DNA of 64,000 bases from a candidate division FCPU426 bacterium (GTDB taxonomy: Bacteria; Oederibacteriota; JAAXVQ01; JAUVAV01), in the NCBI GenBank assembly GCA_030591525.1, contig JAUVAV010000008.1, positions 15,839 through 79,838 of the forward strand, given 5' to 3'. Of this stretch, positions 27,125 to 54,510 are shown in pieces. Positions within the stretch are counted from its first letter, which is position 1. Each line of letters starts with the position of its first letter. The notes under the pieces are model-generated. The model made no database searches. It was not told the DNA's origin and saw nothing but the letters and a program-made list of their open reading frames with translations. The position numbers and the translations under genes were made by a program.

Positions 27125-28099
27125 TTAAAACCGAAACATGAAGCCGGCGACCATGTACAAGCCGCCCAAATCCACGGTAACCAGCTCTCCATCGCTTAAC
27201 AGCGGCTGGGAAAAACCGGTTGCGCTATTTTCATCCACATACGCCAGATCCACTTCAAGTATCCTTAGACCCATATCCACATTCACTCCAAAGTTCTCTC
27301 CGAACATCAGGTCCAAGCCCCCGGCTATGCCGAATCCGAAACCAGGCGAGGGCGTAAATTCCAGATCATACCAGGGCGAGGTATAATAACCGCTGACCCA
27401 GCCCATCAACATGCTGGGAACCAGCTTGAGCCACAATCCGGTCTCATCTCCCAGCGAGAACCTCACGGGCATATTGACGGAAATGATCTGAGGATCCAGG
27501 ACCACTTCCTGCCGGCCGCCGTAAAAAAGATAACTGCCCCACAAAGAATGGGACGCCGGAAAAATCATATCCAAACCAGTGCCTATCTCAACTCCCGCAT
27601 CTAGCTCAAAATCCAGCTCCAGGCCTGCTTTGAAAAAAGTCGTCGCCCCGGCGTCCACAGCATTATTCGGAATGCCGGTACGTTCGGCAAACCATTGATC
27701 TAATTTGCCCCGGTTGTAAGAATTCATCAGCGTGCCTTGCACATACATGACAAAATGCTGCTCTTTCTTTCCCGCTTGCGGAAAGGCCGGCGGTTTGACC
27801 GGTGCCGGTTGATCCTGTCCCATGGTTCTGTCCGGCTGGGCGCTCGTGGCTGCGCCGGTTTTCAATAATTGCTCGTATTCCAGTTTGGCTTTGCTCTCAG
27901 TGTCAAAGATCTCCTTAATTTGACTGCGCAATATGTTTCGGGCTTTTTGCTCCACAGCCAGCACCAATTTTTCCTCCGTGACTCCCAGTAAATTGCCCTG
28001 TAAAACCACCGCATCGTTTAAAACGACTGTCAATATTTTAGCCTGCAGTGGCATAGCCCATAACAGCATTGCAATTACAATGAATTTTAAGGTGCGCAT
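27125..28099 (-). CDS. Hypothetical outer-membrane beta-barrel protein
   Basis: It has a signal peptide (MRTLKFIVIAMLLWAMPLQA), a C-terminal half rich in alternating Gly and aromatic residues, and a terminal Phe (..GFMFRF). Confidence 0.45.
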   Translation of the reverse strand: MRTLKFIVIAMLLWAMPLQAKILTVVLNDAVVLQGNLLGVTEEKLVLAVEQKARNILRSQIKEIFDTESKAKLEYEQLLKTGAATSAQPDRTMGQDQPAPVKPPAFPQAGKKEQHFVMYVQGTLMNSYNRGKLDQWFAERTGIPNNAVDAGATTFFKAGLELDFELDAGVEIGTGLDMIFPASHSLWGSYLFYGGRQEVVLDPQIISVNMPVRFSLGDETGLWLKLVPSMLMGWVSGYYTSPWYDLEFTPSPGFGFGIAGGLDLMFGENFGVNVDMGLRILEVDLAYVDENSATGFSQPLLSDGELVTVDLGGLYMVAGFMFRF

Positions 28100-29258: not shown

Positions 29259-29398
29259 GCAAGTCAAAAAATATAGGACATTATGGGAAACATAATGTCC
29301 TATTCTAAACCCGGCAGCTTAAAGAAACTAGACGCTGGTGGGGTGAATATTATTTCAAATAAAGCAGGGTATGCTTAAATTATTACATAACCGTATTA

Positions 29399-30976
29399 CT
29401 ACTTTAAAATGGCTATTTTTTGCATGGGATGGACTGTTACCGCGCCGCTGGTCGTGGTTATCATCCGGCAGAAATAAATGCCCGGCGCGATCCCCTGCAA
29501 AGACCAGACCACAGCTTGGCCTGGATTGTCCTGCTTGACTTCCATCACCTGCTCTCCCAAAACATTGAACACCTTGATTTGTATGGACGTCACCCCAACG
29601 GTTTGCCAGGTGAAGCGGACCTCGTTTTGGGCGGGATTGGGATAGGCCAGGATGACCCGCGTGGATAATGCGCCTAGTACCGTCGGGGTCGGCGTGGGCG
29701 AAACCGTCGTGACTGGCGTGGATGAAACCGCCGGGGTCGGCGTGGACGAAACCGTCGTGACTGGCGTGGATGAAACCGCCGGGGTCGGCGTGGACGAAAC
29801 TGTCGTGACTGGCGTGGACGAAACTGTCGTGACTGGCGTGGGCGAAACCGTCGTGACTGGCGTGGATGAAACCGCCGGGGTCGGCGTGGACGAAACCGTC
29901 GTGACTGGCGTGGATGAAACCGCCGGGGTCGGCGTGGACGAAACCGTCGGAGTCGGCGTGGACGAAACTGTCGTGACTGGCGTGGACGAAACTGTCGTGA
30001 CTGGCGTGGACGAAACCGCCGGGGTCGGCGTATACGGCTTGGTATTGGCCGTGTATATCACCGTGTCCATGACCGTGCCGTCCGCCCGGATATGGCGCAA
30101 GGTGGCTTGGGCGCCGTTTACGCTGATTTCCGTGTATCCATAATAGGCGGGTTGCGCCTCATCGAACGAATAGGCGACCATATAGCCATTGTTGTCGTGA
30201 TTCTCGTCCACGGCGTACAGCGGCGCGCCGCCATTGCCTGTGACGATCTGTGCAGTGCCGGCGAGCGGATCGAGCGGCGGATTCTTGTCCCCGTTAAGGT
30301 CGAGTTTAAGCGTGCGAACGTAATAATGCGCATGCCCGGCAAAAATGACGTCACAGCCGCCTTGATACAGCGGTACGCCCCAGGTGGTGTGGAGGGTGCT
30401 TTCGTACACCTTGGGCCCGAAATCAAAGATCGGTGGATGCCAGATCGCGAACAGCCAGTCCTGCGGATTATTCTGAATGGCCTGCTGAAGCATGGTGTAT
30501 TGCGCACCGGTCAGGGACTCGTAGGGATTCAGAATGATGAAGCGGGCGTTCTCGTAATCAAAAGTAAAAAACGTGCCGTTGTTGCCAAATTGGCTGTTCT
30601 GGCCAGGCAGGTAAGTGTTCCAGTTGGCCAGCCCGGCCGGCACGGTAACTTGATCGTGATTCCCCGGCACGGACATATACTTTGGGGGAACCGCGCTCTG
30701 GCCAGTGCCACCCAGGGTCTCATTACAGGCTTGCTGCCAAATATTCCACTGGGACGCTTGCGTGCCGTCCTCAACCACGTCGCCCACGCTGATGATGAAG
30801 CAGTAGTCGGGCGTGTTGGCCTGGATGGCGTTGAGTACGCTGCGGTGAGCTGTATCGTCCGTGCGCGTGTCCCCGTATACCACGAATTTCCAGGGGGTCG
30901 CGGCCTGGGCTTGTGCGCCTGTTAATATCAGCAGCGCCAGCAGTGCCAGCGCCCTGGGTGTAACTTTCCTACGCAA
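29399..30976 (-). CDS. Secreted calcineurin-like metallophosphoesterase with a Thr/Pro/Val-rich repeat linker and a T9SS-type C-terminal sorting domain (CTD)-like tail
   Basis: It has a signal peptide (MRRKVTPRALALLALLILTGAQAQA) and metallophosphatase motifs (GDTRTDD, GDVVEDG, GNHD, AGHAHYY). The linker is (SSTPVTTV/SSTPTPAV)n. The tail has YPNPAQNEVRF...GIYFC...ILK. The start is TTG at 30976. Confidence 0.7.
   Translation of the reverse strand: MRRKVTPRALALLALLILTGAQAQAATPWKFVVYGDTRTDDTAHRSVLNAIQANTPDYCFIISVGDVVEDGTQASQWNIWQQACNETLGGTGQSAVPPKYMSVPGNHDQVTVPAGLANWNTYLPGQNSQFGNNGTFFTFDYENARFIILNPYESLTGAQYTMLQQAIQNNPQDWLFAIWHPPIFDFGPKVYESTLHTTWGVPLYQGGCDVIFAGHAHYYVRTLKLDLNGDKNPPLDPLAGTAQIVTGNGGAPLYAVDENHDNNGYMVAYSFDEAQPAYYGYTEISVNGAQATLRHIRADGTVMDTVIYTANTKPYTPTPAVSSTPVTTVSSTPVTTVSSTPTPTVSSTPTPAVSSTPVTTVSSTPTPAVSSTPVTTVSPTPVTTVSSTPVTTVSSTPTPAVSSTPVTTVSSTPTPAVSSTPVTTVSPTPTPTVLGALSTRVILAYPNPAQNEVRFTWQTVGVTSIQIKVFNVLGEQVMEVKQDNPGQAVVWSLQGIAPGIYFCRMITTTSGAVTVHPMQKIAILK
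29682..30040. repeat. Tandem ~30-nt periodic repeats (gtggacgaaaccgtcgtgactggc / gtggatgaaaccgccggggtcggc variants) encoding the TP-rich linker
   Basis: Read directly from the sequence. At least 12 units with two alternating variants. Confidence 0.85.
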
Positions 30977-31095
30977 CCTGCACTCCCCCCCCCTTATACT
31001 TGCCGGCTGTCCGGTTCATTGTGATGAATTATACTCCACAGGCGCCCCTGTTACTAGCTTTTTTCCGGCTGCAGGGTGATTTGGGTTTGACGACT

Positions 31096-31167
31096 GAAAA
31101 TCATTATAAAGCGGTTCATATGCAATATCCGGGGCAACAGGTTCTGGCGAGGCACGCGTTCTATTCC
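31096..31167. repeat. Left copy of a 72-bp direct repeat bounding a ~3.5 kb island
   Basis: The sequence GAAATCATTATAAAGCGGTTCATATGCAATATCCGGGGCAACAGGTTCTGGCGAGG(C/T)ACGCGTTCTATTCC is identical, apart from one mismatch, to 34562-34632. Confidence 0.85.
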
Positions 31168-31300
31168 AGAACAGAATCAGTCCAGAGATTAAATTACTCC
31201 ACCCCAAGGGCGGAGAATTTGATCCGAGATGTAGAAAGTCATTATTTTTATAGCCGCTTCATCCCCGCCTTGAACATGCATATCAATAATAATCTTCATC

Positions 31301-32013
31301 TCATGTCACGAAGTCAAGGCGGGGAATTCGCGGTGACGTATTAAGATGCCTAAGTATCTTTTCTACGATTTCGCTGTCATCCAGCAAAGCTATTATTTTC
31401 ATCTCTCCACCACAAGCGGGAGAGATGAGAGGATCAACCTCCCAGATTTTTTTGATCAATTCCCGCCATTGCTTTGACGGCACTTGCGGTGCTTGGTATG
31501 CCGATATGTCTATTAAATTTTTGAGCATTTGAGCAGGTGATCAGTTGACCGCAGCTTTTCTACTGCTCTCCTGATCAACTGTTCGGCTGCTCTGATTTTC
31601 GCAAAGCGAAAATCAGGTATGTGCTGCGTTATCGCTCCTATGAATTCCCCTGCAGTAAATACTTTGAAGTTTCCTTTGACCTTGGGTTTTGGTTTGGAGC
31701 AGTATATCACACTTCCTGTCTTTTCATTATAAATCATCTTTTCTTCTGAAAATGGATTTCGAATTATATACTGTGCCAATCGTTCCAGGCCTGACCTTTC
31801 TTCCCTTTTGACCGGTTCTCCCTTATGCACACTGAAGCCGCTATGTTGCCAGGCACGCAGTTTCCTGGCTAAATCTTCTATCGGTCTCAAATAGCCATGG
31901 CTTTTTTCATACTTCTCTTTATAATGCTTAAGGTAATCGGCAAAGTGAGCATGCAAACATTGCCACAACTTTGTTCTTTTAGGCTGGCGGGGTTTATAGA
32001 CTTTTTCTTCCAT
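31301..32013 (-). pseudogene. Degraded IS91/ISCR-family (HUH Y2 rolling-circle) transposase, C-terminal portion only, frameshifted
   Basis: Two frames carry the fragments. Frame A (31513-32013) has LAQYIIRNPFSEEKMIY. Frame B (31301-31528) has the characteristic C-terminal zinc ribbon ..ISPACGGEMKIIALL.DSEIVEKILRHL. No HUH N-terminal domain was found upstream. Confidence 0.5.
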
Positions 32014-32374
32014 GTCTTTTTAGACATGGGATTCAGCTTTTTCTTGCTGAAAATATTACCAAACACTGAAGTTGTATGCATCGTGCCAAGACGGTCGGCC
32101 ATTACGATTCATGGCGGCCACTTTTTCTTAAGATAAGAGGTCAGAAAGATTTGCCGGGCGCTTAAGCTGAAATTCGGGGATTTCATTCAGGAATTCAAGC
32201 GGGAATTAAAATAAGTTAATTTGTTATTTTAGCTAATGGACTTCACCCAGAATTACATCAATTACGCAATCAGGGACAGGAGCCGTTTGGTTTCTTTTGT
32301 ATCGTGGATCACGAGCGGGACCGCCCCCTGAAGCCTTGAAGCTTTTTTATTGTTGAAAGAGACACGAGGGATCA

Positions 32375-33199
32375 ATGATCGACCAACTATGCGTCCAATT
32401 CTTGAAATGGTGTTTACCGAATCTGCGCCTGAAATGGTCAGGGTTCCAAAAAGTCCGAAGGCATGTCTGCAAGCGGATTTACTCTCGCTGTCACGAAATT
32501 GGCATTTCCACGCTTTTGGAGTATCAAAAATATCTTGAAAACCATGGCCAAGAGTGGGAAATTCTTGACACCCTCTGCCGAATTACCATCTCCCGTTTCT
32601 ACCGCGATCGTCAAGTGTTCGAGACCTTGCGTAACCAGGCGCTGCCCCTCCTCATTCAAAAAGCCGTCGCCGGAGGAGAACAAGCACTTTATGGCTGGAG
32701 TCTCGGATGTTGTAATGGTGAAGAGGCTTATTCCCTGCAGATCCTCTGGCAGCTGGGAATTAAGCCGAACTTTCCAGAAGATTTACGGCTTCGACTGATA
32801 GCTACCGATGTGAATGCACATTTGCTGGAACGCGCTTCCCAAGGCTGTTATGTTCAAAGCAGCCTGAAGGACCTTCCACCAGAATGGATTGACCAGGCTT
32901 TTGAACAAACCGGGAGGCAGTATTGCATCAAGGAAAGTTACAAAGAGAATCTTCAATTTGTAAAGCAGGATATTCGGCACCAACTGCCTGAAGGCCGGTT
33001 TCATCTTATCCTTTGTCGCAATCTGGTTTTTACCTATTTTGAAAAAAGCCTCCAACTGGCAATACTGGCCAAATTGGTAGAAAAGCTTATCCCCGGAGGT
33101 TTTTTAGTGATTGGAAGTCATGAGAAACTGCCTGGAGGAAGCCCTGATCTACAATCTTCCCCGGCGATGCCAAGTATTTATCAAAAAACGATTATCTAA
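32375..33199 (+). CDS. CheR-type SAM-dependent methyltransferase (protein-glutamate O-methyltransferase-like), orphan
   Basis: The CheR N-terminal helical domain (ISRFYRD) and a class I MTase core (YGWSLGCCNGEEAYSL, IATDVNAHLLERA) are present. There are no neighbouring chemotaxis genes. Confidence 0.65.
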   Translation: MIDQLCVQFLKWCLPNLRLKWSGFQKVRRHVCKRIYSRCHEIGISTLLEYQKYLENHGQEWEILDTLCRITISRFYRDRQVFETLRNQALPLLIQKAVAGGEQALYGWSLGCCNGEEAYSLQILWQLGIKPNFPEDLRLRLIATDVNAHLLERASQGCYVQSSLKDLPPEWIDQAFEQTGRQYCIKESYKENLQFVKQDIRHQLPEGRFHLILCRNLVFTYFEKSLQLAILAKLVEKLIPGGFLVIGSHEKLPGGSPDLQSSPAMPSIYQKTII

Positions 33200-33330
33200 G
33201 AATGCTTCGAAACCACCCGGCGCGCTAGGGAAACCTGCCCCTGCTTCTGAATTAATGCCGCAAAACAGCCAGCGAACCAAGACCCGTTTTTTAGATTGAA
33301 ATTTATATAAGGGTTCCAATTTGAATGATC

Positions 33331-34062
33331 CTACTTCGGGACCGGAGGCTTTCTCTGGGACAGGTTCAGGATTTTATTCTTTAATTCACGATTAATTGGG
33401 AAACCCAGAATATTAACCACTGGCCATCTCACATCTTGACTCTCGTTCCCCGCATAGACGATCCCGGCCAGACGATAAGATCCATCCTTCCCAATGCGAA
33501 AAATCGGGCTTCCGCTCAAGCCCCCTAAATTCCATCTTTTCTCCCGGGGGTTTAAACGAGATTCCAGCCAGATTTTCCGATCCGAAAAAAGCCGACACGT
33601 GGCCCAGAGATGTTTCGCCTTTGACGGAGATCTCTTATTCCCTGGGAACCCCACCACCAAGACTTCTTCGTCCTCTTGGATTCGGGGGCTGTCTTCTTCG
33701 AGCTGATAGAAATTCTTGCCCCCGCTGAGAATCACATCTCTATCCAGCCCAAAGACAGCGATGTCAAACGGAAGATCAAAATCTTTGCGTTGGGAGGAAA
33801 AGATGAGGCGACCGGGAAGCGGGCGAGGTCTTGGCAGGGCCAGTGTGAAGAGGAGTTGTTGGGAATTCCAGCGATATTTTTCAGCAACCACATGTTGGTT
33901 GGTGATGCCCAAGCAGCGGCCCTTCCATTCCACAAAAGTCAAGGTGGCGTTGGTCAGTCGGGACTTCGGGCCGGCTTCAAGCTTGCTTATCCTCAGTTCG
34001 GCACAAAACTTAGCCGTTGCCGAAGAAAGCTTGGTTTCAAAACGCGCATCCTGGTTTAACAT
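33331..34062 (-). CDS. Cytoplasmic trypsin/chymotrypsin-fold serine peptidase (no signal peptide)
   Basis: A His-Asp-Ser triad is in the usual context (GITNQHVV ... DIAVFGLD ... GLSGSPIF). The protein is 243 aa and convergent with the CheR-like gene inside the island. Confidence 0.55.
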   Translation of the reverse strand: MLNQDARFETKLSSATAKFCAELRISKLEAGPKSRLTNATLTFVEWKGRCLGITNQHVVAEKYRWNSQQLLFTLALPRPRPLPGRLIFSSQRKDFDLPFDIAVFGLDRDVILSGGKNFYQLEEDSPRIQEDEEVLVVGFPGNKRSPSKAKHLWATCRLFSDRKIWLESRLNPREKRWNLGGLSGSPIFRIGKDGSYRLAGIVYAGNESQDVRWPVVNILGFPINRELKNKILNLSQRKPPVPK

Positions 34063-34561
34063 CTTTCGACCCCGACGTTAAGATAAAGTTGAAGCGAGAG
34101 CTAGAGAAATTTGGGCTTTCTACCTCGATCGCTTCATTCCTCTGACGATCAACTGCGGGTTTGCAAAAAAAGAAAGCCAATCTGCGGTTTAGAGGAACAA
34201 TTGTTTAGTCGGGTTTAATATCGCGGCCTTTCACCGAAGATCAAAGGGATACGAATAAAATGATGGCAGAGAAATTTATTCTAATCCCCGGAAGAAGATG
34301 CCTTAGGTTTAATTCGTTCTGCTCTCAGCTGATAAGAATTTACTTTTGAAGGATAGTGTAACAAAGGCTGAAATAGTACGTCAACGGCAAAATTTCGGGC
34401 TGAGGATGTTATACTCAGACTGGTAAAAACTCTAATCTCGTGTTGGGCAAAGATTTTCCAGCGGCTTTTCTACAATTTCCGGTAAAAATGGCCTTTCTGA
34501 TAGACTGTTGAGACAGTTCTTTCCTATTCCCCCTAGCTACCGATTCTTCCGGATCTAACTG

Positions 34562-34632
34562 GAAATCATTATAAAGCGGTTCATATGCAATATCCGGGGC
34601 AACAGGTTCTGGCGAGGTACGCGTTCTATTCC
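34562..34632. repeat. Right copy of the 72-bp direct repeat. It overlaps the last two codons and the stop of phoR.
   Basis: See 31096-31167. Sequence identity stops exactly at the phoR stop codon. Confidence 0.85.
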
Positions 34633-36398
34633 GGCAGCTTAATCGTAAAAACACTGCCTTGGCCCGGAGCGCTCTCTACGGATACGGAACCGCCGTGCGC
34701 CTGCGCGATATGCTTGACAATGGCCAGGCCTAAACCAGTTCCGCCCAGCTCGCGGCTGCGGGCCCTGTCGACCCGGTAAAAACGCTCAAAAATCCGGACG
34801 AGGTGCTGGCTCTCGATTCCGCATCCCTGGTCGCGAACGCGCACTATTACTTCTCTTTCTCCGCGCTCCGCCTCCACGGTTATTACTTTGCCCGGCTCGC
34901 TGTATTTGACGGCATTATCAATTAAATTGATAAGTGCCTGCTCCAGGAGAGGTATATTGGCTTGCGTGCCAAGGTCTTCCGGGCAGTCAATCTTAATTTC
35001 ATGCTTTTGGCTTGCCGTCCGGGCTTCGTAAAGCAGGATGACCGATTTTAGAACATCCTTTATCTTACAGCTTTCCAGGCGAATCTCTTTTTTTTCAGCT
35101 TCCTGTTCAATCCGCGAGAGATTTAAAAGATCTTCAATAATGGCATTTAGCCGCTCAGCGTATTTTAAGATTATTTCCAGGAATCGTCGGCTCTCCTGGG
35201 GCTTGTTTATGGCCCCGTCCAGCAGAGTTTCCACAAAACCCTGGATACCGGTAATCGGCGTTTTAAGTTCATGGGAAACATTGGCCACAAAATCCCGGCG
35301 CATTCTTTCCAAACGGCGCAGACGGGTAATATCATTTAATACTATCAGCGCGCCTATGCCTTTTCCCTGCTCATCCCGCAGAGTAGTGCCGTGAACATGC
35401 ATGATGCATTCGGTGTTATATTTATAAAGAACGATCTCGTCTTCCAGCACAGTTTGCGAGGCCAGGGTTTTGGTCACAAAACGCTGGAGATCAGTATTCC
35501 GCACAACTTCCTGGAGGCTCCGCCCTCTGACCCGGCCGGTCTGGATCCCGAACATATCCGCGGCCGCGCTGTTTATATTGAGAAGGCATTCATCAGCATC
35601 CACTGCCAGAACACCCTCCACCATGCTGGACAAAACCGCTTCCTGCTCATGACGCTGCCGCAGTATGGTCCGGATGCGCTCATCCAGCTGGCCGGCCATC
35701 TGGTTTAAAGTCTCGGCCAGTCCGCCGATCTCCTCTGAATTGGGGATGGGTAATTTATGGTCCAAATCCCCCCTGGCAAAACGTTCTGCACCATTTTTCA
35801 TTTCCCTTAAGGGGCGGCTGATTTGATAGGAAACCGCCAGGCTGACAGCCGCTGCCAATAAGGCAATCAACAGTCCTGCCAGAGCCAGCTTCAGATAAAT
35901 TCCTTTTAGTGACTGCCGGATAGAGGTTATGGGGATTGCCAGCCGGATAACCGCCGGTATGCTATTGCCGCGGATATGGGGAATAGCAAGATACATCATG
36001 TCTTTCCGCAAGGTATGGCTGAACCGGTTGGATATTCCCACCTGGCCGTCCAGGGCTGCCATGACCTCGGGCCGGTCAGCGTGATTATCCATGCGAACGG
36101 GATCCTCTTGGGAGTCGCCCATGACCTTTCCGGATGGAAGGATTATTGTGAGGCGGGCGCCCACGGTTTGGCTTAATTCCCGGCAGAGCCGGTTAACCGC
36201 AGCACTGTCTCCGGCAGATATGATTCCCTGCATCTCTCTTTCTATCAAGCCGGCTTGAGATTTAAGATGCTGCCTGATTTCCGTTAAATATAATTGGCGC
36301 AGAAAGCCGGCGGCAATCCAGCTGACTGCCAGGAGAGACATAAGTATAATCAGCAGGTAGGATGGATAAAGCTGCCAGAGGAGACGTTTTTTTCGCAT
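34626..36398 (-). CDS. phoR: Phosphate-regulon sensor histidine kinase (TM-HAMP-PAS-HisKA-HATPase)
   Basis: It has an H-box (FVANVSHELKTP), and N, G1 and G2 boxes (DNAVKYS, DQGCGI, GGTGLGLAI). It is the last gene of the pst-phoU-phoB-phoR array. Confidence 0.85.
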   Translation of the reverse strand: MRKKRLLWQLYPSYLLIILMSLLAVSWIAAGFLRQLYLTEIRQHLKSQAGLIEREMQGIISAGDSAAVNRLCRELSQTVGARLTIILPSGKVMGDSQEDPVRMDNHADRPEVMAALDGQVGISNRFSHTLRKDMMYLAIPHIRGNSIPAVIRLAIPITSIRQSLKGIYLKLALAGLLIALLAAAVSLAVSYQISRPLREMKNGAERFARGDLDHKLPIPNSEEIGGLAETLNQMAGQLDERIRTILRQRHEQEAVLSSMVEGVLAVDADECLLNINSAAADMFGIQTGRVRGRSLQEVVRNTDLQRFVTKTLASQTVLEDEIVLYKYNTECIMHVHGTTLRDEQGKGIGALIVLNDITRLRRLERMRRDFVANVSHELKTPITGIQGFVETLLDGAINKPQESRRFLEIILKYAERLNAIIEDLLNLSRIEQEAEKKEIRLESCKIKDVLKSVILLYEARTASQKHEIKIDCPEDLGTQANIPLLEQALINLIDNAVKYSEPGKVITVEAERGEREVIVRVRDQGCGIESQHLVRIFERFYRVDRARSRELGGTGLGLAIVKHIAQAHGGSVSVESAPGQGSVFTIKLPE

Positions 36399-36401
36399 AA
36401 C

Positions 36402-37091
36402 TTATTCCTGAAAGCGGTAACCTACGCCGCGCACGGTTTCAATATGCTTCCCGGCCGTACCGAGTTTCCGGCGTAAGCCGACAATCTGGACATCCACCGA
36501 ACGCTCGGTGACTGAGTAGTCTTCCCCGCGCACGGCATCTACCATTTGGTAGCGGGTAAATACCCGGCCGCGGTTTTTAGCTAAAAAATGGAGCAGGCGG
36601 AATTCCGTGAGTGTCAGGTTAAGGGGTTTTCCCTTAACCATTACCTCATGCCGGGCTTGGTTGATACTCAACTCGTGGATGGTAAGCGGGCCGGCCTCAT
36701 CCGCCTCCCGGCTTTGGTCCCTGCGCCGCAAAACCATGCGCAGACGCGCAATTAAAACCCGGGGACTAAAGGGCTTGGTAATATAATCCTCTGCTCCCAA
36801 CTCCAACCCGGCAATAATATCCGATTCCTCGCCCTTGGCTGTCAGCATGATAATTGGAATATACCGGGTCCGGTCGTCTCTTTTCAGTATCCGGCAGATT
36901 TCCAAACCATCCATGCCCGGCAGCATTAAATCCAGAATAATAAGGTCCGGAACTTTTGACTTGATCAGCTTAAGACCCTCTTCGCCGCTCCGGGCGCTAC
37001 TGACCTGATAGCCTTCCTGTCCCAGATTATACTTGAGCAATTCCCGGATATGTTCATCATCTTCAATCACAAGTATCCTGGCTTTTGGCAT
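36402..37091 (-). CDS. phoB: Phosphate regulon response regulator (OmpR/PhoB family, winged helix)
   Basis: It has a receiver domain (ILVIEDDEHI..DLIILDLMLPGMDG) and a trans_reg_C domain (LTLTEFRLLHFLAKNRGRVFTRYQM...VDVQIVGLRRKL). Confidence 0.9.
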   Translation of the reverse strand: MPKARILVIEDDEHIRELLKYNLGQEGYQVSSARSGEEGLKLIKSKVPDLIILDLMLPGMDGLEICRILKRDDRTRYIPIIMLTAKGEESDIIAGLELGAEDYITKPFSPRVLIARLRMVLRRRDQSREADEAGPLTIHELSINQARHEVMVKGKPLNLTLTEFRLLHFLAKNRGRVFTRYQMVDAVRGEDYSVTERSVDVQIVGLRRKLGTAGKHIETVRGVGYRFQE

Positions 37092-37099
37092 TCCTTACC

Positions 37100-37771
37100 T
37101 CAATCCTCTTTTTCAACCTCGGCTTGGTGCCGGATGATCCGGCCTTCGATCAGGTAAATCACATCCTCTGCGATGTTGGTGGCGTAATCCGCAATGCGTT
37201 CCAACTGGCGGGAGACGGATAAGAGCCGGAGCAAAGCCGGCGTCCGGTCGGTTTTTTTCCGGATTCCCTCCTGCACCTGTACATACATTTGACGGTTAAT
37301 GGCATCCACCTCATCGTCAGAGCCTAATACTTTCCGGGCCAGCCCGGCATCCAGGTTAACCAGGGCATCCAGGCTGGTTCTGAGCATGGCCTGGGTTTTC
37401 CGGGCCATGCCAATAAAATCAAAAGGCATGCCCACCGGTTCCTGCCCGGCCAGGGCGCATGCCTGCTCGGCAATGTTTACCGCTAAATCCCCGATTCTTT
37501 CCAGATCATTGTTGACCTTCAACACTGCTATAACATAGCGCAGATCAATGGCCACCGGCTGGTGCAGGGCCAGGATTTTCAGGCATTCCTCCTCGACCTC
37601 TACCTCCATCTCATCGATCCCGGCATCCGCCTCTATTACCTGCCGGGCCAGTTCTGTATTCCGCGTGCCGACTGATTTGACGGCTTTTTGAAAACTCTCT
37701 TCCACTATGGCGCAGAGCGAGAGAATCTTTTTTTTGAGTTTTGCGATCTCGGTTTGCAAATGCTGAGACAC
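37100..37771 (-). CDS. phoU: Phosphate transport system regulator PhoU
   Basis: It has two PhoU repeats (..NNDLERIGDLAVNIAE.. / ..SVSRQLERIADYATNIAED..). Confidence 0.9.
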   Translation of the reverse strand: MSQHLQTEIAKLKKKILSLCAIVEESFQKAVKSVGTRNTELARQVIEADAGIDEMEVEVEEECLKILALHQPVAIDLRYVIAVLKVNNDLERIGDLAVNIAEQACALAGQEPVGMPFDFIGMARKTQAMLRTSLDALVNLDAGLARKVLGSDDEVDAINRQMYVQVQEGIRKKTDRTPALLRLLSVSRQLERIADYATNIAEDVIYLIEGRIIRHQAEVEKED

Positions 37772-37788
37772 CTTATTCTTCTCCTTTC

Positions 37789-38571
37789 TTACCCGAAACG
37801 TCCGGTAATATAATCTTCGGTTTGTTTTTGATCCGGTTTGGTAAATATTTTCTGCGTCTCGCCAAATTCGATTAGCCGGCCTTCATAGAAAAAACCGGTA
37901 TAATTCGAGACCCGGGCCGCCTGTTGCATATTATGCGTGACAATCACAATAGTATATTTTTTTCGCAGCTCCCCGATCAGGTCCTCGACTTTGGCGGTCG
38001 AGCGCGGGTCCAGGGCCGAGGCCGGCTCATCCATAAGGATAATTTCCGGATTAATGGCCAAGGCCCGCGCAATGCATAAGCGCTGCTGCTGTCCGCCCGA
38101 GAGCGCCAGGGCGCTGCCCTCCAGCCGGTCTTTTACCTCGTCCCAGAGGTTGGCGCGAACCAGGCTATTTTCCACGATTTCCGCCAGTACCTGCCTATCC
38201 CGGGTTCCATGAATTCTGGGCCCATAGCACACGTTCTCAAATATTGATTTGGGAAAGGGGTTGGATTTTTGAAAAACCATGCCCACGGTTTTACGCAAAC
38301 CAACCACGTCAATGCCGTTCTTATAAATATCCTGGTTGTCAATTATAACCCGCCCTTCCTGCCGGGTGTTTTCGATTATATCATTCATGCGGTTAAGTGT
38401 GCGCAAAAAGGTCGATTTTCCGCATCCCGAAGGACCGATCAGAGCCGTAACCTGGCAGGCGGGAATCTCCATATCCACTCCGAACAGGGCCTGGGTGGGA
38501 CCGTAATAGAAATTAAGCTTTTCAACCTTTATCTTTACTTCCATAGAGATCTCCTTGTTTGGCATACCCAC
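37789..38571 (-). CDS. pstB: Phosphate ABC transporter ATP-binding protein
   Basis: It has Walker A (GPSGCGKST), the signature LSGGQQQR, Walker B (ILMDEP) and a PstB-type N-terminus. Confidence 0.9.
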
Positions 38572-38574
38572 ACT

Positions 38575-39426
38575 TTACCATTTATATTTTTTCCGGAAAT
38601 GGCTTCGCAGAAAAATAGCAAACAGATTGATTCCCAACACCAAAGCGATCAGCACCAGCGCGGTTCCGTACTGCAAAGGCCGGACCAGATCCATTTCGTG
38701 GTGCTGGGTGGCTAAAATGTACAAGTGATACGGCAGAACCATTACCTGATCGAATATGGACCCGGGCAACCTGGGCAGATAAAAAGCCGCTACAGTCAGC
38801 AAAATAGGCGCGGTCTCGCCGGCCACACGTCCAACCCCCAGAATCGAGCCGGTCAGCATGCCGGACACGGAATAAGGCAGCACGTTCTTATATATGGTCT
38901 GCCATTTGGTCGCGCCCAAGGCCAGGCTGCCCTCGCGCAGCCCCAGGGGCACTGCCCGCAGCGCCTCTTCGCTGGATACAATAATCGTAGGCAGAATCAT
39001 GCAAGCCAGGGTCAGTATCCCTGCCAGGATGGAGGTGCCGAAATTCAAAAAAATCACGAATAATCCCAATCCGAATAAACCGAAAACAATCGAGGGCACC
39101 CCGGCCAGGGTTACAATCGCCAGGCGGATAGCACGTGTAAAACGGCCGGGCTTGGCGTACTCGGAAAGATATACCGCGCTCAACATTCCCAAGGGCAAGG
39201 CTATCAGTATGGTACCCAAAACCAGGCAGAGAGTGCCTATAATCGCCGGAAAAATGCCGCCCTTGGTTCCGCCTCCGCTGGGCGCGGTAAACAGGAATTC
39301 CCAGCTGATGACCGGCAGTCCTTTTATTACAATATCAAAAATAATCCAACTGATAGTTAAAATTATAAAATAGGTGGTAATCCGGAATGCCCAGTAGATC
39401 CATTTTTCCGTCCATCGGCTTTTCAT
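38575..39426 (-). CDS. pstA: Phosphate ABC transporter permease PstA
   Basis: It has 6 TM helices and the second permease position of the pst operon. Confidence 0.85.
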   Translation of the reverse strand: MKSRWTEKWIYWAFRITTYFIILTISWIIFDIVIKGLPVISWEFLFTAPSGGGTKGGIFPAIIGTLCLVLGTILIALPLGMLSAVYLSEYAKPGRFTRAIRLAIVTLAGVPSIVFGLFGLGLFVIFLNFGTSILAGILTLACMILPTIIVSSEEALRAVPLGLREGSLALGATKWQTIYKNVLPYSVSGMLTGSILGVGRVAGETAPILLTVAAFYLPRLPGSIFDQVMVLPYHLYILATQHHEMDLVRPLQYGTALVLIALVLGINLFAIFLRSHFRKKYKW

Positions 39427-39433
39427 TTATGCT

Positions 39434-40309
39434 TCACCTTTGTTGGTAAGTATGCAAAACCTTTTGCGCAATATAATTGATAATGAAAGTCGCAAAAAGC
39501 AGAACCAGCCCGACCCAGAACAAGGCCCCGTAATGTTCCGACCCAAAAGCCACCTCGCCCATTTCCGACGCAATTACGGCAGTCATGGTATAAACCGGCT
39601 CAACCGGGGACAACGTAACAATCGGCGCATTGCCCGTACACATAAGCACTGCCATGGTCTCGCCGATGACCCGGCCCATGCCCAGCATAACCGCGGCAAT
39701 TATGCCGGAAAGTGCGGCTGGAACAATGACCTTGATAATGGTCTGCATCCGGGTAGCTCCCATGGCCAGGGAGGCTTCCTTGTAAGATTGGGGAACGCTT
39801 TTAATCGCGTCCTCGGAAATAGTAATTATAGTTGGGATTGACATCAGGGCCAGGAGCAGGGCGCCGGTTAGCGCGGTGAGCCCGGAACTCAGGCCGAATA
39901 TTTCCTTTATAATCGGCCCGAGCACAATCAGTCCGAAAAAGCCTATTACCACCGAGGGTATGCCGGCCAGCAGTTCAATAAAAGGCTTGAAAATTTCGCG
40001 CTCCCAGGGAGCGGCAATCTCGGCAATATAAATGGCTCCGCACACGCCGAACGGAATTGCGATCAAGGTAGCCACCATGGTTACCACCAGTGATCCGGTA
40101 ACCAGGGGCAGCAATCCAAACCGTTCTTGAACAAACGAGACCGGCGCCCAGCGGCTGTCCAGCAGTTTCCCCAGTCCGGGCTCCTGCAAAAAAGGGACGG
40201 CCTCTTTGCCCAGGAAACCGAATATCAGCAGCACTATAAGAATGCTGGTGGAGGCCGCCCCTAAAAAGCAGTATTTGATAAGCTTGTCTTTAACCGGACC
40301 GGGAAGCAT
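39434..40309 (-). CDS. pstC: Phosphate ABC transporter permease PstC
   Basis: It has 6 TM helices and the first permease position after pstS. Confidence 0.85.
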   Translation of the reverse strand: MLPGPVKDKLIKYCFLGAASTSILIVLLIFGFLGKEAVPFLQEPGLGKLLDSRWAPVSFVQERFGLLPLVTGSLVVTMVATLIAIPFGVCGAIYIAEIAAPWEREIFKPFIELLAGIPSVVIGFFGLIVLGPIIKEIFGLSSGLTALTGALLLALMSIPTIITISEDAIKSVPQSYKEASLAMGATRMQTIIKVIVPAALSGIIAAVMLGMGRVIGETMAVLMCTGNAPIVTLSPVEPVYTMTAVIASEMGEVAFGSEHYGALFWVGLVLLFATFIINYIAQKVLHTYQQR

Positions 40310-40312
40310 TAT

Positions 40313-41149
40313 TTATTTAACCGCTACAAATCCTGCCTGGGTAACTACCTGCTGGCCCGTTTCGCTCAGGATTAAATCCAAATACTTTTTCGCCGTGCCT
40401 TTGGGTTTGCCAACTGTGTAAAGGTAGAGCGGGCGATTTATGACATACGAATTATCCACCACGGTTTTCTGGGAAGGCGCCACGCCCTCTACCTTGAGTC
40501 CCTTAACTTTGTCTTTGTTTTTAGCCAGGTAGCCCAGGCCTACATAACCAATAGCCCATTTATCCTGGGTAATTGTCTGTATAATGGCGGAATTGGAGGC
40601 CAGGTTCATCATTCTATCCGAATAATCCTCTTTTTCGCAGACCTTCTTATTAAAGAAAGCATACGTACCTGAAGCGGTATTGCGGCCGGTCAGAACGATC
40701 TTTTTGTTCGGTCCGCCCACTTTTTTCCAATTGGTATACGCTCCCACATATATCTTCTTGAGCTGCTCCAGGCTGAGATCGCTTACCGGATTCTTGGGAT
40801 TTACAATTACGGCTATGCCGTCACGCGCCACTGTATGTTCCTTGATATCCAGACCTTTCTTTTTCGCGAGTTTTAATTCCTTGGCTTTAATCTTGCGTGA
40901 GGCATTGGCAATATCAGCCGTGCCATTAAGCAGGGCCGCTATCCCGGTTCCGGAGCCGCCGCCGGTTACCGCGATATCCGCGCTCTTATTCTCCTGCATG
41001 AATATTTCCGCCCACTCGGTCGCCATATGTACTATTGTGTCCGAGCCCTTCACCTGCAGGCTCGTTTTTTTTGCGGCCGCGTTATCCACTGCCAGACCGC
41101 TTCCCATTAAAAGTGCTGCGCTTAGCATTACTGCCAGTCTTTTTTTCAT
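40313..41149 (-). CDS. pstS: Phosphate-binding protein PstS
   Basis: It has a signal peptide and periplasmic-binding-protein sequence (GSDTIVHMATEWAE...TGGGSGTGIAAL). It is the first gene of the pst operon. Confidence 0.85.
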   Translation of the reverse strand: MKKRLAVMLSAALLMGSGLAVDNAAAKKTSLQVKGSDTIVHMATEWAEIFMQENKSADIAVTGGGSGTGIAALLNGTADIANASRKIKAKELKLAKKKGLDIKEHTVARDGIAVIVNPKNPVSDLSLEQLKKIYVGAYTNWKKVGGPNKKIVLTGRNTASGTYAFFNKKVCEKEDYSDRMMNLASNSAIIQTITQDKWAIGYVGLGYLAKNKDKVKGLKVEGVAPSQKTVVDNSYVINRPLYLYTVGKPKGTAKKYLDLILSETGQQVVTQAGFVAVK

Positions 41150-41233
41150 TTTTTCTCTCCTTTTTTTAATTTAAGTTGCGAATCGCAACCCCTGTCTTAT
41201 TTCTTCTGCAATTCAGACAGTAGCAAAACCTTC

Positions 41234-41343
41234 TGTCATTCCGGCATGATTTTAGCCCTGGACTAAACCCTCCAGGACAGGCCGGAATCCAGGGAATTTA
41301 TCGGTCAAATCCATCCTGGACCCCGGCTTTCGCCGGGGTGACG
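41234..41343. repeat. Family B element (second copy) between the porin and pstS genes
   Basis: Near-identical to 11502-11636, including the CCTGGACCCCGGCTTTCGCCGGGGTGACG terminal hairpin. Confidence 0.8.
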
Positions 41344-41451
41344 ACTATAGAAGGCCCAAAGATAGTTACTGTCCGAACCGCAGTTATTTCGTTTATATAT
41401 TACTTTTCTAATGTTAGGATTTGGTTAGCATTCTATTAGCTTTTCATAAGT

Positions 41452-42582
41452 TTAAAACACATACTGGGTCTGAACGAACAACTCATTCATATTATTGCCG
41501 TCCACCCCATCCCGGTTTTTGCCCATCTGGTAAGTAAGCTGCAATTTAACGTCATGCTTTAATATAAAATAGTTTAACCCCACTGACGAAGCAGACCAAA
41601 TAAACTCATATCCGGCCGCGTCCTGGACTTGATATCCCAGCACAATTTCCAGGGTCTTTGGCAGGATCATGTAACCTGCTTCAATGGCCGCATTTTTCAA
41701 CTCGGTTCCACTGTCCAGGTATATACCGCTGTCAATGCCCGGTTCTATCAGTCCGGCCTGGAAATAATTATACTCGGCATCCAGGGAAATCCCAAATCCC
41801 CGGAAACCGGCATGGCCTTCAAAAGCGCCGACATAATCCACGTCCTTTTTGCTTCTGCCTGCGTCCAGGTTGTCCCCATCATTTTTCCAATTGAAACCGG
41901 CCACGCCGATGAGCACTTTGGGCTCGCCTTTAAAATCGCCCTGTTTGGCCTTAAAATGCCCCAAAGGATACCAGTCAATATTGGCGCCGCCTATGACGCC
42001 CTGGCTCCAATCACTGCCCGCACCGATGTGAATCGGAGTGTCAAAATCCAGCTTTTTATTATCCGGATCAACCGCGCCCATGGCCACGGAAGCCGCCCAG
42101 TTGATGGTCTTTTCCTCAAAATGACCGCTTACATGAATACCCGGCTGCCGGTCTGGCGTTCCATAGTTATGATCGCCGACAAAGGTACGCTCAACCAACT
42201 GCTGATATTTTGAGGAAGTACGCCCTTCCAGGGAAAACGGAAAGACCATATTGCCAATACCAACATTGATATCTTCCCAGCCTTTATATTGGAAATAAGC
42301 ATCCTTAATACTGACGCCGCCTTTTCCCATGTCCCACTGAAACTTTCCTTTCCAGTTTTTGTGTACGCTCCCTTCGATATAAGGCCGCAAGCGCCGGAAT
42401 AATATCTTGTCACTGCGCTCGCCGCCCTCGGGATCTTTCCAATGATATTGCAGCTGGATCCGGCCCCCGAGTTTGACATAATCGCCCTCCTCGGTCTTGT
42501 ATTTCACCCCGCCGGCAATGGCCGCCTGCCAACCCGCCAGGCTGAACATTAACCCTAAAGTTATTACTATAATTCTTTTCAT
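41452..42582 (-). CDS. Phosphate-selective porin O/P family outer-membrane protein
   Basis: It has a signal peptide, a beta-strand-rich sequence and a C-terminal Phe (..QTQYVF). Its position heads the pst locus, as in OprO/OprP. Confidence 0.65.
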   Translation of the reverse strand: MKRIIVITLGLMFSLAGWQAAIAGGVKYKTEEGDYVKLGGRIQLQYHWKDPEGGERSDKILFRRLRPYIEGSVHKNWKGKFQWDMGKGGVSIKDAYFQYKGWEDINVGIGNMVFPFSLEGRTSSKYQQLVERTFVGDHNYGTPDRQPGIHVSGHFEEKTINWAASVAMGAVDPDNKKLDFDTPIHIGAGSDWSQGVIGGANIDWYPLGHFKAKQGDFKGEPKVLIGVAGFNWKNDGDNLDAGRSKKDVDYVGAFEGHAGFRGFGISLDAEYNYFQAGLIEPGIDSGIYLDSGTELKNAAIEAGYMILPKTLEIVLGYQVQDAAGYEFIWSASSVGLNYFILKHDVKLQLTYQMGKNRDGVDGNNMNELFVQTQYVF

Positions 42583-42903
42583 GCAATTTTCCTCCTCAGA
42601 TTATTTGTAATTAGTAATAGTAGCTTTGCCTTAGGTAATTATTAACTCTTTACTATCATTCCCGCCCTTCTTCTATTGTCACCTCCCTTAAGTTGTTTTC
42701 CTTCCCGCTTTCGCTGATCTCGGCGGATAATATATTTTCGTGATTAGGATTTTGTTAGGGAAGTGCTAAAATTATGTAAGCTTTTTGACCTTTCAGCACC
42801 GACCGGCGCAAACCGGCTAAATGTTTTTGTGAATTATAGCAGAACTCAAATCAGGTTTTCGTGAGGAATGAATGTTTTTCGTTAAAATTGCAGGTAAAGG
42901 GAG

Positions 42904-45684: not shown

Positions 45685-45822
45685 CCAGGAGCTTGAGCAT
45701 TTAGTCTGCTTTTTGAGAGTAGATAGTAGAAAGTAGACCGCATTTGAGATATTTTATCTAATTTCTACTATCGAATCTCAAATGCTCTGAAGCCTGAGTA
45801 ACTAGTTGCTCAGGCTTCTAGG
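45685..45822. repeat. Family C miniature inverted-repeat element (canonical copy). Its right terminal inverted repeat overlaps the stop codon of the giant gene.
   Basis: The sequence is CCAGGAGCTTGAGCATTTAGTC-...AGTAGATAGTAGAAAGTAGACCGCATTTGAGATATTTTATCTAATTTCTACTATCGAATCTCAAATGCTC...-GAGCCTGAGTAACTAGTTGCTCAGGCTTCTAGG. Confidence 0.85.
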
Positions 45823-54223: not shown

Positions 54224-54510
54224 CAGGCCTCTCTTTGCTTTTTTAAAATATGCTCCTGTATTTTTTTGCAAACGCGGTAATAGAGAAATCCCATCACGCC
54301 TATGCAAAGTAAAACTATCAACCCTAAAACAATTTCCATTTTTCTATTCTCCTGTTTTTATTCAGATTAATTATAGCTTCTGTTGGTTAAGAAAATATTT
54401 CGGAAATGTGTTTTTTGTGTGAATATTTATCAGATGCTTTAGAGAGATCGCTGGAGAAAATACTAAATTGCACTAGTGTCGTGTTTCATAAGTACGTTGA
54501 ATTAATGTTT

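Follow-up and report, generated by a model that had tools for sequence, protein, structure and literature searches.

The whole stretch of 64,000 nucleotides (nt) from contig JAUVAV010000008.1 considered here (hereafter the window) carries on its minus strand, at 29399..30976, a gene for a protein of 525 residues, with a TTG start codon at 30974–30976 and a TAA stop codon at 29399–29401, as taken from the list of open reading frames (ORFs) and a reading of the sequence. We consider it likely that the product of this TTG-started gene is an exported metallophosphoesterase of the purple acid phosphatase (PAP) fold, joined by a Thr/Pro spacer to a C-terminal sorting domain belonging to the T9SS (type IX secretion system), and that it probably releases phosphate outside the cell. 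In the proposed mechanism, the N-terminal signal peptide would take the protein across the inner membrane by the Sec pathway, and the type A C-terminal domain (CTD) would direct it to a T9SS-type route across the outer membrane, with the product displayed on the cell surface or released. The enzyme would be a binuclear metallophosphoesterase that retains all canonical metal motifs except the PAP tyrosine. A disordered Thr/Pro/Ser spacer of 131 residues, which probably arose when a 24-nt unit was recently amplified in tandem, would keep it apart from the sorting domain. Its most likely role would be to free phosphate from external organic phosphoesters. As it stands, this is a routine gain in annotation that provides a candidate phosphate-scavenging enzyme for the FCPU426 phylum.

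Domain architecture

An initial annotation, made from the nucleotide letters, had read the gene as starting at TTG and as encoding a calcineurin-like catalytic domain and a Por/T9SS-like C-terminal tail, the latter to be checked with the profiles TIGR04183 and Por_Secre_tail. The gene call stands, and both domains are borne out by profile searches and by a structure model computed with AlphaFold2 on the basis of 31 homologs.

Residues 1–25 (30902..30976, minus strand) read as a Sec-type signal peptide, MRRKVTPRALALLALLILTGAQAQA followed by A, with a basic n-region, a hydrophobic core and the residues AQA before the predicted cut. The AlphaFold2 model places a helix at residues 2–21, and a comparable N-terminus is found in all homologs.

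The metallophosphoesterase domain spans approximately residues 28–313 (30038..30895, minus strand), as delimited by Pfam, AlphaFold2 and Foldseek, and displays a PAP-like fold. PF00149 (Metallophos) matches residues 30–219 at profile positions 2–191 of 191 (E = 6.6e-10; 40.2 bits against a cut-off of 21.5), and PF14008 (Metallophos_C) matches residues 240–305 (26.1 bits; cut-off 23). Over residues 29–310 of the model, block means of the predicted local distance difference test (pLDDT) mostly exceed 90. The top 30 Foldseek matches in the PDB are all PAPs, 1xzw among them with an E-value of 7.8e-15, and pig and human PAP, like the entry 1ute, superpose with a template-modeling (TM) score of 0.71 normalized to the target. 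When sequences are compared instead, plant PAPs are the nearest proteins of solved structure (E = 7e-8). Eight residues (D36, R38, H44, D66, N106, H107, H180 and H217) are invariant among the 31 homologs and H215 is nearly so, which indicates that the binuclear-metal motifs are intact; by reference to the family, D36, D66, N106/H107, H180, H215 and H217 would be the metal ligands. Motif II reads GDVVE and has E69 where the PAPs carry their tyrosine ligand, in a column that is variable across the family and not conserved. The motif II tyrosine (GDxxY) gives true PAPs their Fe(III)-tyrosinate chromophore. Because this tyrosine is replaced by E69, the protein, an apparent enzyme with a PAP fold, should not be filed as a true PAP.

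The C-terminal residues 443–525 (29402..29650, minus strand) form a T9SS type A sorting domain with a β-sandwich fold, identified by PF18962, TIGR04183, AlphaFold2 and Foldseek. Both profiles score above their curated cut-offs: PF18962 (Por_Secre_tail) covers residues 445–509 with 37.6 bits (cut-off 27) and the NCBIfam model TIGR04183 reaches 35.6 bits (cut-off 23), the CTD profile matches spanning residues 445–512 of 525. In the model, the CTD is a sandwich of eight β-strands with pLDDT values of 82–95. The sequence of the domain matches the T9SS CTD chain 8glj_D (E = 2e-4), and the PorU CTD (6za2_B) is among the weaker, separate Foldseek matches obtained for the tail.

The Thr/Pro spacer

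The catalytic domain and the CTD are joined by a linker of 131 Thr, Pro and Ser-rich residues, for which pLDDT falls below 50 over residues 318–439. It is encoded by a tandem array at 29678..30031 (minus strand), delimited by Tandem Repeats Finder and codon reading, which comprises a leading partial unit and 14 full units of 24 nt encoding SSTPVTTV or SSTPTPAV. Tandem Repeats Finder returns a period of 24 nt in 13.7 copies and one of 48 nt in 7.4 copies (score 543, far beyond chance), the higher-order 48-nt period arising from the alternation of these two main subtypes of eight residues. The initial annotation had described at least 12 tandem repeats of ~30 nt: the array is real and contains 14 full units, but its period is 24 nt, or eight residues. 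Many of the units have exactly the same nucleotide sequence, a sign that the 24-nt unit was amplified recently. The initial annotation called the linker O-glycosylation-like; no finding speaks for such a role. The O-glycosylation motif of Bacteroidota is D-(S/T)-(A/I/L/V/M/T); the linker, read from the sequence, is devoid of Asp, so this motif cannot occur in it.

Judging from homologous proteins, linker length clearly varies over evolutionary time. In most of the family the linker has 20–24 residues and is not rich in Thr and Pro, and in the nearest clade it has 21–66 residues and is always Thr/Pro-rich. The ortholog on contig L018, which belongs to an FCPU426 metagenome-assembled genome (MAG) and is 79% identical, carries a different Thr/Pro repeat of its own, and the contig breaks inside that repeat.

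On the shorter time scale of a population, the initial annotation described the linker as hypervariable-looking. Look-ups by way of the neighboring peroxiredoxin and Obg gave only short JGI and Logan contigs. The comparison of copy number, and that of the G tract discussed below, rests on one other, independent copy of the locus, contig L001 (JGI 3300040952, 4177 nt), which is identical to the window throughout its length except for a single in-frame deletion of 144 nt that leaves 8 units instead of 14. The two assemblies thus do differ, by six units. Genuine variation of the array within the population, tuning how far the enzyme reaches from the surface, would be consistent with this otherwise perfect identity, with the DNA-identical units left by recent amplification, and with the range of 21 to 131 residues and the different repeat of L018 among the closest homologs. 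However, the missing 144 nt are exactly the interval between two perfect 110-nt repeats of the array (offset 144 nt), which is also the path that an assembler would take in collapsing a repeat. L001 is a fragmented contig of 4.2 kb that ends in another repeat, the break in L018 indicates that such arrays defeat assemblers, and the samples behind the two assemblies may be identical or related. The difference between 14 and 8 units is ambiguous, being predicted equally well by real recombination or slippage and by the collapse of a short-read assembly, and true variation of the array is a possible but doubtful reading. Should the length of the repeat, or that of the G tract, prove polymorphic in reads, this would be contingency-type variation in a free-living uncultured organism.

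The Pho neighborhood and the probable substrate

Upstream of the phosphoesterase gene and on the same strand lies a complete Pho cluster (34626..42582, minus strand; NCBIfam and Pfam), which consists of a phosphate-selective porin (41452–42582), pstS, pstC, pstA, pstB, phoU, a phoB-like regulator and a PhoR/PnpS kinase (34626–36398). Scores exceed the cut-offs for PstB (402 bits), PstA (293.5), PstC (291.6), the PstS family (286), PhoU (200.4) and PnpS (403.5); Porin_O_P matches the porin with 54.4 bits, and for the regulator PhoB is the best model, at 263.5 bits and below its cut-off of 296.

The cluster and the gene are now separated by an insertion of 3.46 kb (31093–34632; GC content 45%) that sits right after the phoR stop codon and is bracketed by a 75-nt direct repeat, found by a repeat search, whose copies A (31093..31167) and B (34558–34632) are 97% identical. 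The insertion contains IS91/Y2_Tnp transposase fragments (31301–32013), a CheR-like methyltransferase (32375–33199) and a trypsin-like peptidase (33331–34062); L001 ends inside one copy of the 75-nt repeat. Copy A retains the final 7 nt of phoR, which implies that 184 nt lay between this gene and the phosphoesterase gene before the insertion.

A position directly downstream of a porin-pstSCAB-phoU-phoB-phoR cluster suggests phosphate scavenging as the most economical functional guess, and the gene might be under Pho control. Secreted phosphatases are classic members of the Pho regulon. The locus is otherwise ordinary, and the Pho-cluster neighborhood is the most useful new fact about it.

Several observations weigh against this assignment. 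Both pstS and the porin gene are preceded by three to four repeats of the form sCTAAyM in an 11-bp phase (at 41412–41440 and 42742–42781, respectively), which look like the Pho boxes of this lineage; a weight matrix derived from both sets finds upstream of the phosphoesterase gene only one half-site, GCTAGTA at 31058. The adjacency is unique to the window, as tblastn with all Pho proteins detects no pst or phoU at ~45 related loci, and the 79% ortholog on L018 is flanked by an M48 peptidase and a CHASE2 cyclase, with no Pho genes. The GC content of the gene, 58.7%, is above that of its neighbors (49.6% for the window), and the gene may have come to lie next to the Pho cluster only recently. 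Finally, distant family members on two contigs of Calditrichota-like MAGs (L004 and L005) lie in clusters resembling polysaccharide-utilization loci, together with genes for a TonB-dependent receptor, PorV, a BNR/sortilin protein, a β-helix protein with a CTD, GH3, GH88, heparinase II/III and sulfatases. These clusters hint at a role in breaking down modified glycans, and the substrate of the family may be something other than a simple phosphate ester scavenged for phosphorus.

These points, together with the rearranged junction revealed by the IS91-like insertion, would be expected if the enzyme acted on another ester during the breakdown of extracellular polymers and its position beside the Pho genes were accidental. 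We regard this as unlikely: the gene lies on the same strand as the cluster and was only 184 nt behind phoR before the insertion, the predicted PAP-like fold and the intact metal motifs point to phosphoester hydrolysis, and a secreted phosphatase is a classic constituent of a Pho regulon. Phosphate scavenging is retained as the probable role.

The family, its host and the probable export route

The closest protein is P0001 (JGI, 477 residues), followed by homologs at 72–50% identity; many homologs have ~420 residues and keep the layout of catalytic domain, short linker and CTD. A HMMER search over 1.84 billion cluster representatives retrieves 47 clusters (50% identity) at E ≤ 1e-30 and 609 at E ≤ 1e-10, and a search for close relatives in metagenome_contigs yields only the 72% homolog. 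Among GTDB species representatives, the family occurs in MAGs labeled FCPU426, Ignavibacteria, Calditrichota, Bacteroidota, Gemmatimonadota and others; the 79% ortholog on L018 matches best. Taken together, these sequences make up an uncharacterized subfamily of modest size in which fusion to a T9SS sorting domain recurs.

The organism is related to FCPU426, as indicated by this ortholog and by the Obg protein of the window: its closest full-length taxon-named matches are the Obg proteins of two FCPU426-named records (63–64% identity), a partial Firestonebacteria protein is 65% identical over 83% of the query, and Firmicutes and Chloroflexi follow at ~53–55%. To our knowledge, candidate phylum FCPU426 has no cultured members. 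NCBI lists it among the unplaced candidate phyla, and the FCPU426 16S clade has been linked to Goldbacteria (PMC7031533). The window encodes, besides the phosphate-selective porin, TonB/ExbB, to which the matching JGI contig L013 adds ExbD; these genes indicate a diderm cell.

Export of the phosphoesterase by a T9SS is plausible, judging from the CTD and from the gene neighborhoods of its relatives. In the FCPU426 MAG GCA_040756875.1, the ortholog found there is followed by a CTD protein of 864 residues, a PorV/PorQ-family outer-membrane protein (NF033709, 142.8 bits; cut-off 90), which is two genes away from the ortholog, and a protein of 1215 residues with its own CTD. This clustering makes CTD-dependent sorting plausible in the lineage, and distant homologs also adjoin PorV genes. 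In the literature, we found nothing on a T9SS in FCPU426 or Goldbacteria.

The alternative is a lineage without a translocon, in which the CTD would be a generic β-sandwich module unconnected with T9SS export. In its favor, reviews describe the T9SS as specific to Bacteroidota or to the FCB superphylum (PMC12398890, PMC9170169), to which FCPU426, unplaced at NCBI, has not been assigned; and, in the GCA_040756875.1 cluster, the 1215-residue neighbor of the PorV-like gene does not match the PorU model outside its own CTD. Two results from the window tell against T9SS export as well: no T9SS component is found among the ~40 ORFs scanned with Pfam and NCBIfam, and a custom CTD hidden Markov model applied to all six-frame ORFs hits only this gene, leaving the window with no second CTD protein. 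Nevertheless, the CTD scores above the thresholds of both curated models, an FCPU426 MAG has a PorV/PorQ-family protein and additional CTD proteins clustered with the ortholog, and existing annotations list CTD proteins of FCPU426 as T9SS type A sorting-domain proteins (P0045). We regard the alternative as unlikely. With T9SS-type export as the favored route, the gene contributes one case of T9SS-type cargo from a lineage not assigned to the FCB superphylum by NCBI.

Start codon, leader and G tract

Translation probably begins at the TTG codon, preceded by a GGGAG Shine-Dalgarno site. Upstream of TTG, there is an in-frame stop codon at 31016–31018 and, from there to TTG, no alternative start codon. 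The JGI gene call for P0001, on a near-identical contig, uses the identical start, and two other FCPU426 orthologs (N-termini MRRIV.. and MLKRVTK..) carry ATG at this position, which supports TTG as the homologous start. The probable Shine-Dalgarno core GGGAG (30983..30987, minus strand) lies 6 nt before TTG and resembles in motif class and spacing the sites of other window genes: GGAG, GAGG or AGGA occurs within positions −20 to −4 at 24 of 43 longest-ORF starts. The G tract from which it derives is unpaired in the predicted leader fold. The arrangement of GGGGAG, 6-nt spacer and TTG is conserved in L018, and a pairwise DNA alignment finds GGGGAGTGCAGGTTGCG to be 100% conserved between the two sequences.

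A point against the gene as read here is that the exact 525-residue product, with M or L as first residue, is missing from a collection of 15 billion proteins in which the neighboring peroxiredoxin, 324-residue protein, PhoR and Obg, encoded on the same NCBI contig, are all recorded with NCBI among their sources. The depositors' annotation of the locus may differ, with a pseudogene or another start.

An upstream ATG (31017..31019, minus strand) lies 8 nt after a TATAAT hexamer (31028..31033, minus strand), a candidate −10 element that is conserved in L018; a consensus promoter scan finds no full promoter at this hexamer, for which a good −35 element is missing. The upstream ATG has no Shine-Dalgarno site and, with two orthologs starting at the TTG position, was rejected as the true start. 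In the window it opens an out-of-frame upstream ORF of 16 codons, which ends at TAG (30969–30971), 5 nt past TTG; its counterpart in L018 is in frame with the gene.

The leader elements TATAAT, ATGAACCGGACA and, further downstream, GGGGAGTGCAGGTTGCG are 100% identical in the two sequences (window 31008–31033, L018 5985–6010), and the coding sequence just downstream diverges despite this identity. The leader appears to be under some nucleotide-level constraint. A structured leader or a riboswitch was considered and rejected: the predicted fold is weaker than that of shuffled sequences (z = +1.47), and Rfam returns no match.

The messenger RNA leader also contains a homopolymer of exactly nine G (G9; 30985..30993, minus strand), separated from TTG by 8 nt, AGTGCAGG, at the position given by the initial annotation. 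The window contains five G/C runs of length 6, two of length 7, none of length 8 and one of length 9. G9 is the sole G/C run of at least 8 in 64 kb; a first-order Markov model expects 1.6 runs of at least 9, and runs of at least 7 are depleted (3 observed against 17 expected). The mere existence of G9 is not significant; it is notable for lying immediately ahead of a start codon. The initial annotation took the whole tract for the Shine-Dalgarno sequence, and this is correct for its 3′ end, where the last three G and the following AG form GGGAG, whereas the five extra G residues are not needed. L018 has only four G at this point, GGGGAGTGCAGGTTG, with the spacing to the start unchanged in the alignment, and the pairwise DNA alignment assigns to the window an insertion of 19 nt relative to L018 (30989..31007, minus strand), GCCGGCAAGTATAAGGGGG, by which G4 grows to G9 at its 5′ end. 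G9 is best viewed as an ancestral ribosome-binding site, GGGGAG, lengthened on its 5′ side in this lineage only, and not as a demonstrated switch.

The further suggestion of the initial annotation, that slippage could phase-vary expression, finds no support. A contingency element would require that slippage between tracts such as G8, G9 and G11 alter ribosome loading or the frame of the upstream ATG. The tract does have a slip-prone length (about 8 or more) and is the only long G/C homopolymer of a window in which such runs are otherwise depleted. Behind the conserved TATAAT, the upstream ATG, computed with tracts of G7 to G11, would be in frame with the gene for G8 or G11 and add an N-terminal extension, MNRTAGKYKGGECR-LRRKV..., that matches MNRTGECRLRTKV of L018. 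A variable G-repeat in an mRNA leader is also a known regulatory target in the Helicobacter pylori tlpB/RepG system (PMC8295292); on homopolymers at Shine-Dalgarno sites we found nothing in the literature. On the other side, because the extension sits 5′ of the conserved GGGAG and its 6 nt, slippage leaves the spacing between the Shine-Dalgarno site and TTG unmoved. The tract lies outside the TTG-started ORF, and a change in its length shifts only the frame of the upstream ATG, a placement in which such a change is not expected to alter expression. L001, the only other assembly of the locus, also has G9; exact patterns flanking a gap of 4–16 nt find no other tract-length allele in metagenome_contigs and genome_contigs; and none of the 10 related upstream regions examined contains a G tract. 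Furthermore, the two orthologs that begin at the TTG position without an upstream extension imply that the TTG form suffices, and the upstream ATG lacks a Shine-Dalgarno site. On this anatomy, phase variation is mechanistically unlikely, and a contingency role of the tract is very improbable overall. Slightly less probable still is its most specific form, in which the conserved upstream AUG, which may be leaderless, would be switched by slippage among G8, G9 and G11 from a long form in frame with the gene to the 16-codon upstream ORF, which overlaps TTG, and back, and the output of the surface phosphatase would be set translationally. Were this true, the switch, combined with real copy-number variation of the linker, would make a doubly hypermutable surface-enzyme gene outside any pathogen.

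Other features of the window

A terminator-like hairpin of 13 pairs followed by a T run (29273..29303, minus strand; consensus scan) lies ~100 nt beyond the stop codon, where the phosphoesterase and peroxiredoxin genes converge, and is probably their shared terminator.

Three other minus-strand genes deserve mention. An ORF of 2829 residues with a TTG start (45818–54307) has no significant match in Pfam or NCBIfam and encodes an orphan giant protein; it was considered as an SprA/Sov-like translocon and rejected, having no family match at all. A protein of 324 residues (27125–28099) with a signal peptide and a C-terminal ...FRF has the look of an outer-membrane protein and no family match; as a candidate PorV it was likewise discarded, as NCBIfam returns nothing for it and it does not resemble the PorV-like protein of the FCPU426 MAG. 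In a protein of 793 residues (54778–57159), a GT4 glycosyltransferase at the C-terminus is joined to an N-terminal region that weakly matches CehA/McbA-type metallohydrolases, an unusual fusion.

Comparison with known systems

The predicted protein resembles T9SS type A cargo, such as the gingipains and the secreted enzymes of Flavobacterium, in its succession of Sec signal, functional domain, linker and β-sandwich CTD of ~80 residues. Its CTD shows the usual type A landmarks, with YPNP close to the beginning, G-I-Y-F close to the end and K-x-x-x-x-K in terminal position. Unlike the T9SS cargo of Bacteroidota, the protein comes from an FCPU426-related host, with no export machinery among the window ORFs scanned. 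Unlike the usual linker of its own family, its linker is a 14-unit tandem repeat about six times the length of 20–24 residues.

With the plant and mammalian PAPs (1xzw, 4dhl, 1ute and 6gja), the protein has in common the fold (TM scores of 0.55–0.73 normalized to the target, E-values down to 8e-15) and the motifs GD, GDxx, GNHD, xxxH and GHxH. It differs from them in its low sequence identity (12–19%), in carrying E69 in place of the GDxxY tyrosine, in lacking an N-terminal fibronectin-like domain and in its invariant H44, to which no PAP counterpart is assigned. In contrast to the PAPs, no member of this phosphoesterase subfamily has a solved structure.

The Pho-regulon phosphatases PhoA, PhoX and PhoD offer a parallel for an exported phosphoesterase, encoded here beside pstSCAB-phoU-phoBR and a phosphate-selective porin. 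The present gene differs from them in enzyme family, in having no recognizable Pho box, in an adjacency that is not conserved and in the 3.46-kb mobile-element remnant that precedes it.

Contingency loci and variable G-repeats in mRNA leaders, such as H. pylori tlpB/RepG (PMC8295292), share with this gene a slip-prone G homopolymer in the 5′ leader by the ribosome-binding site. Here, in contrast, the same G9 is found in both assemblies, the tract is not conserved and the Shine-Dalgarno spacing would be unaffected by slippage.

Finally, the spacer is akin to the PT boxes of secreted bacterial glycoside hydrolases, in which a disordered Thr/Pro/Ser segment likewise separates the catalytic from the C-terminal module, and similar Thr/Pro-rich linkers precede the CTD in the FCPU426 protein P0045. 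Unlike PT boxes, the linker of the phosphoesterase is a nearly perfect tandem repeat at the DNA level.

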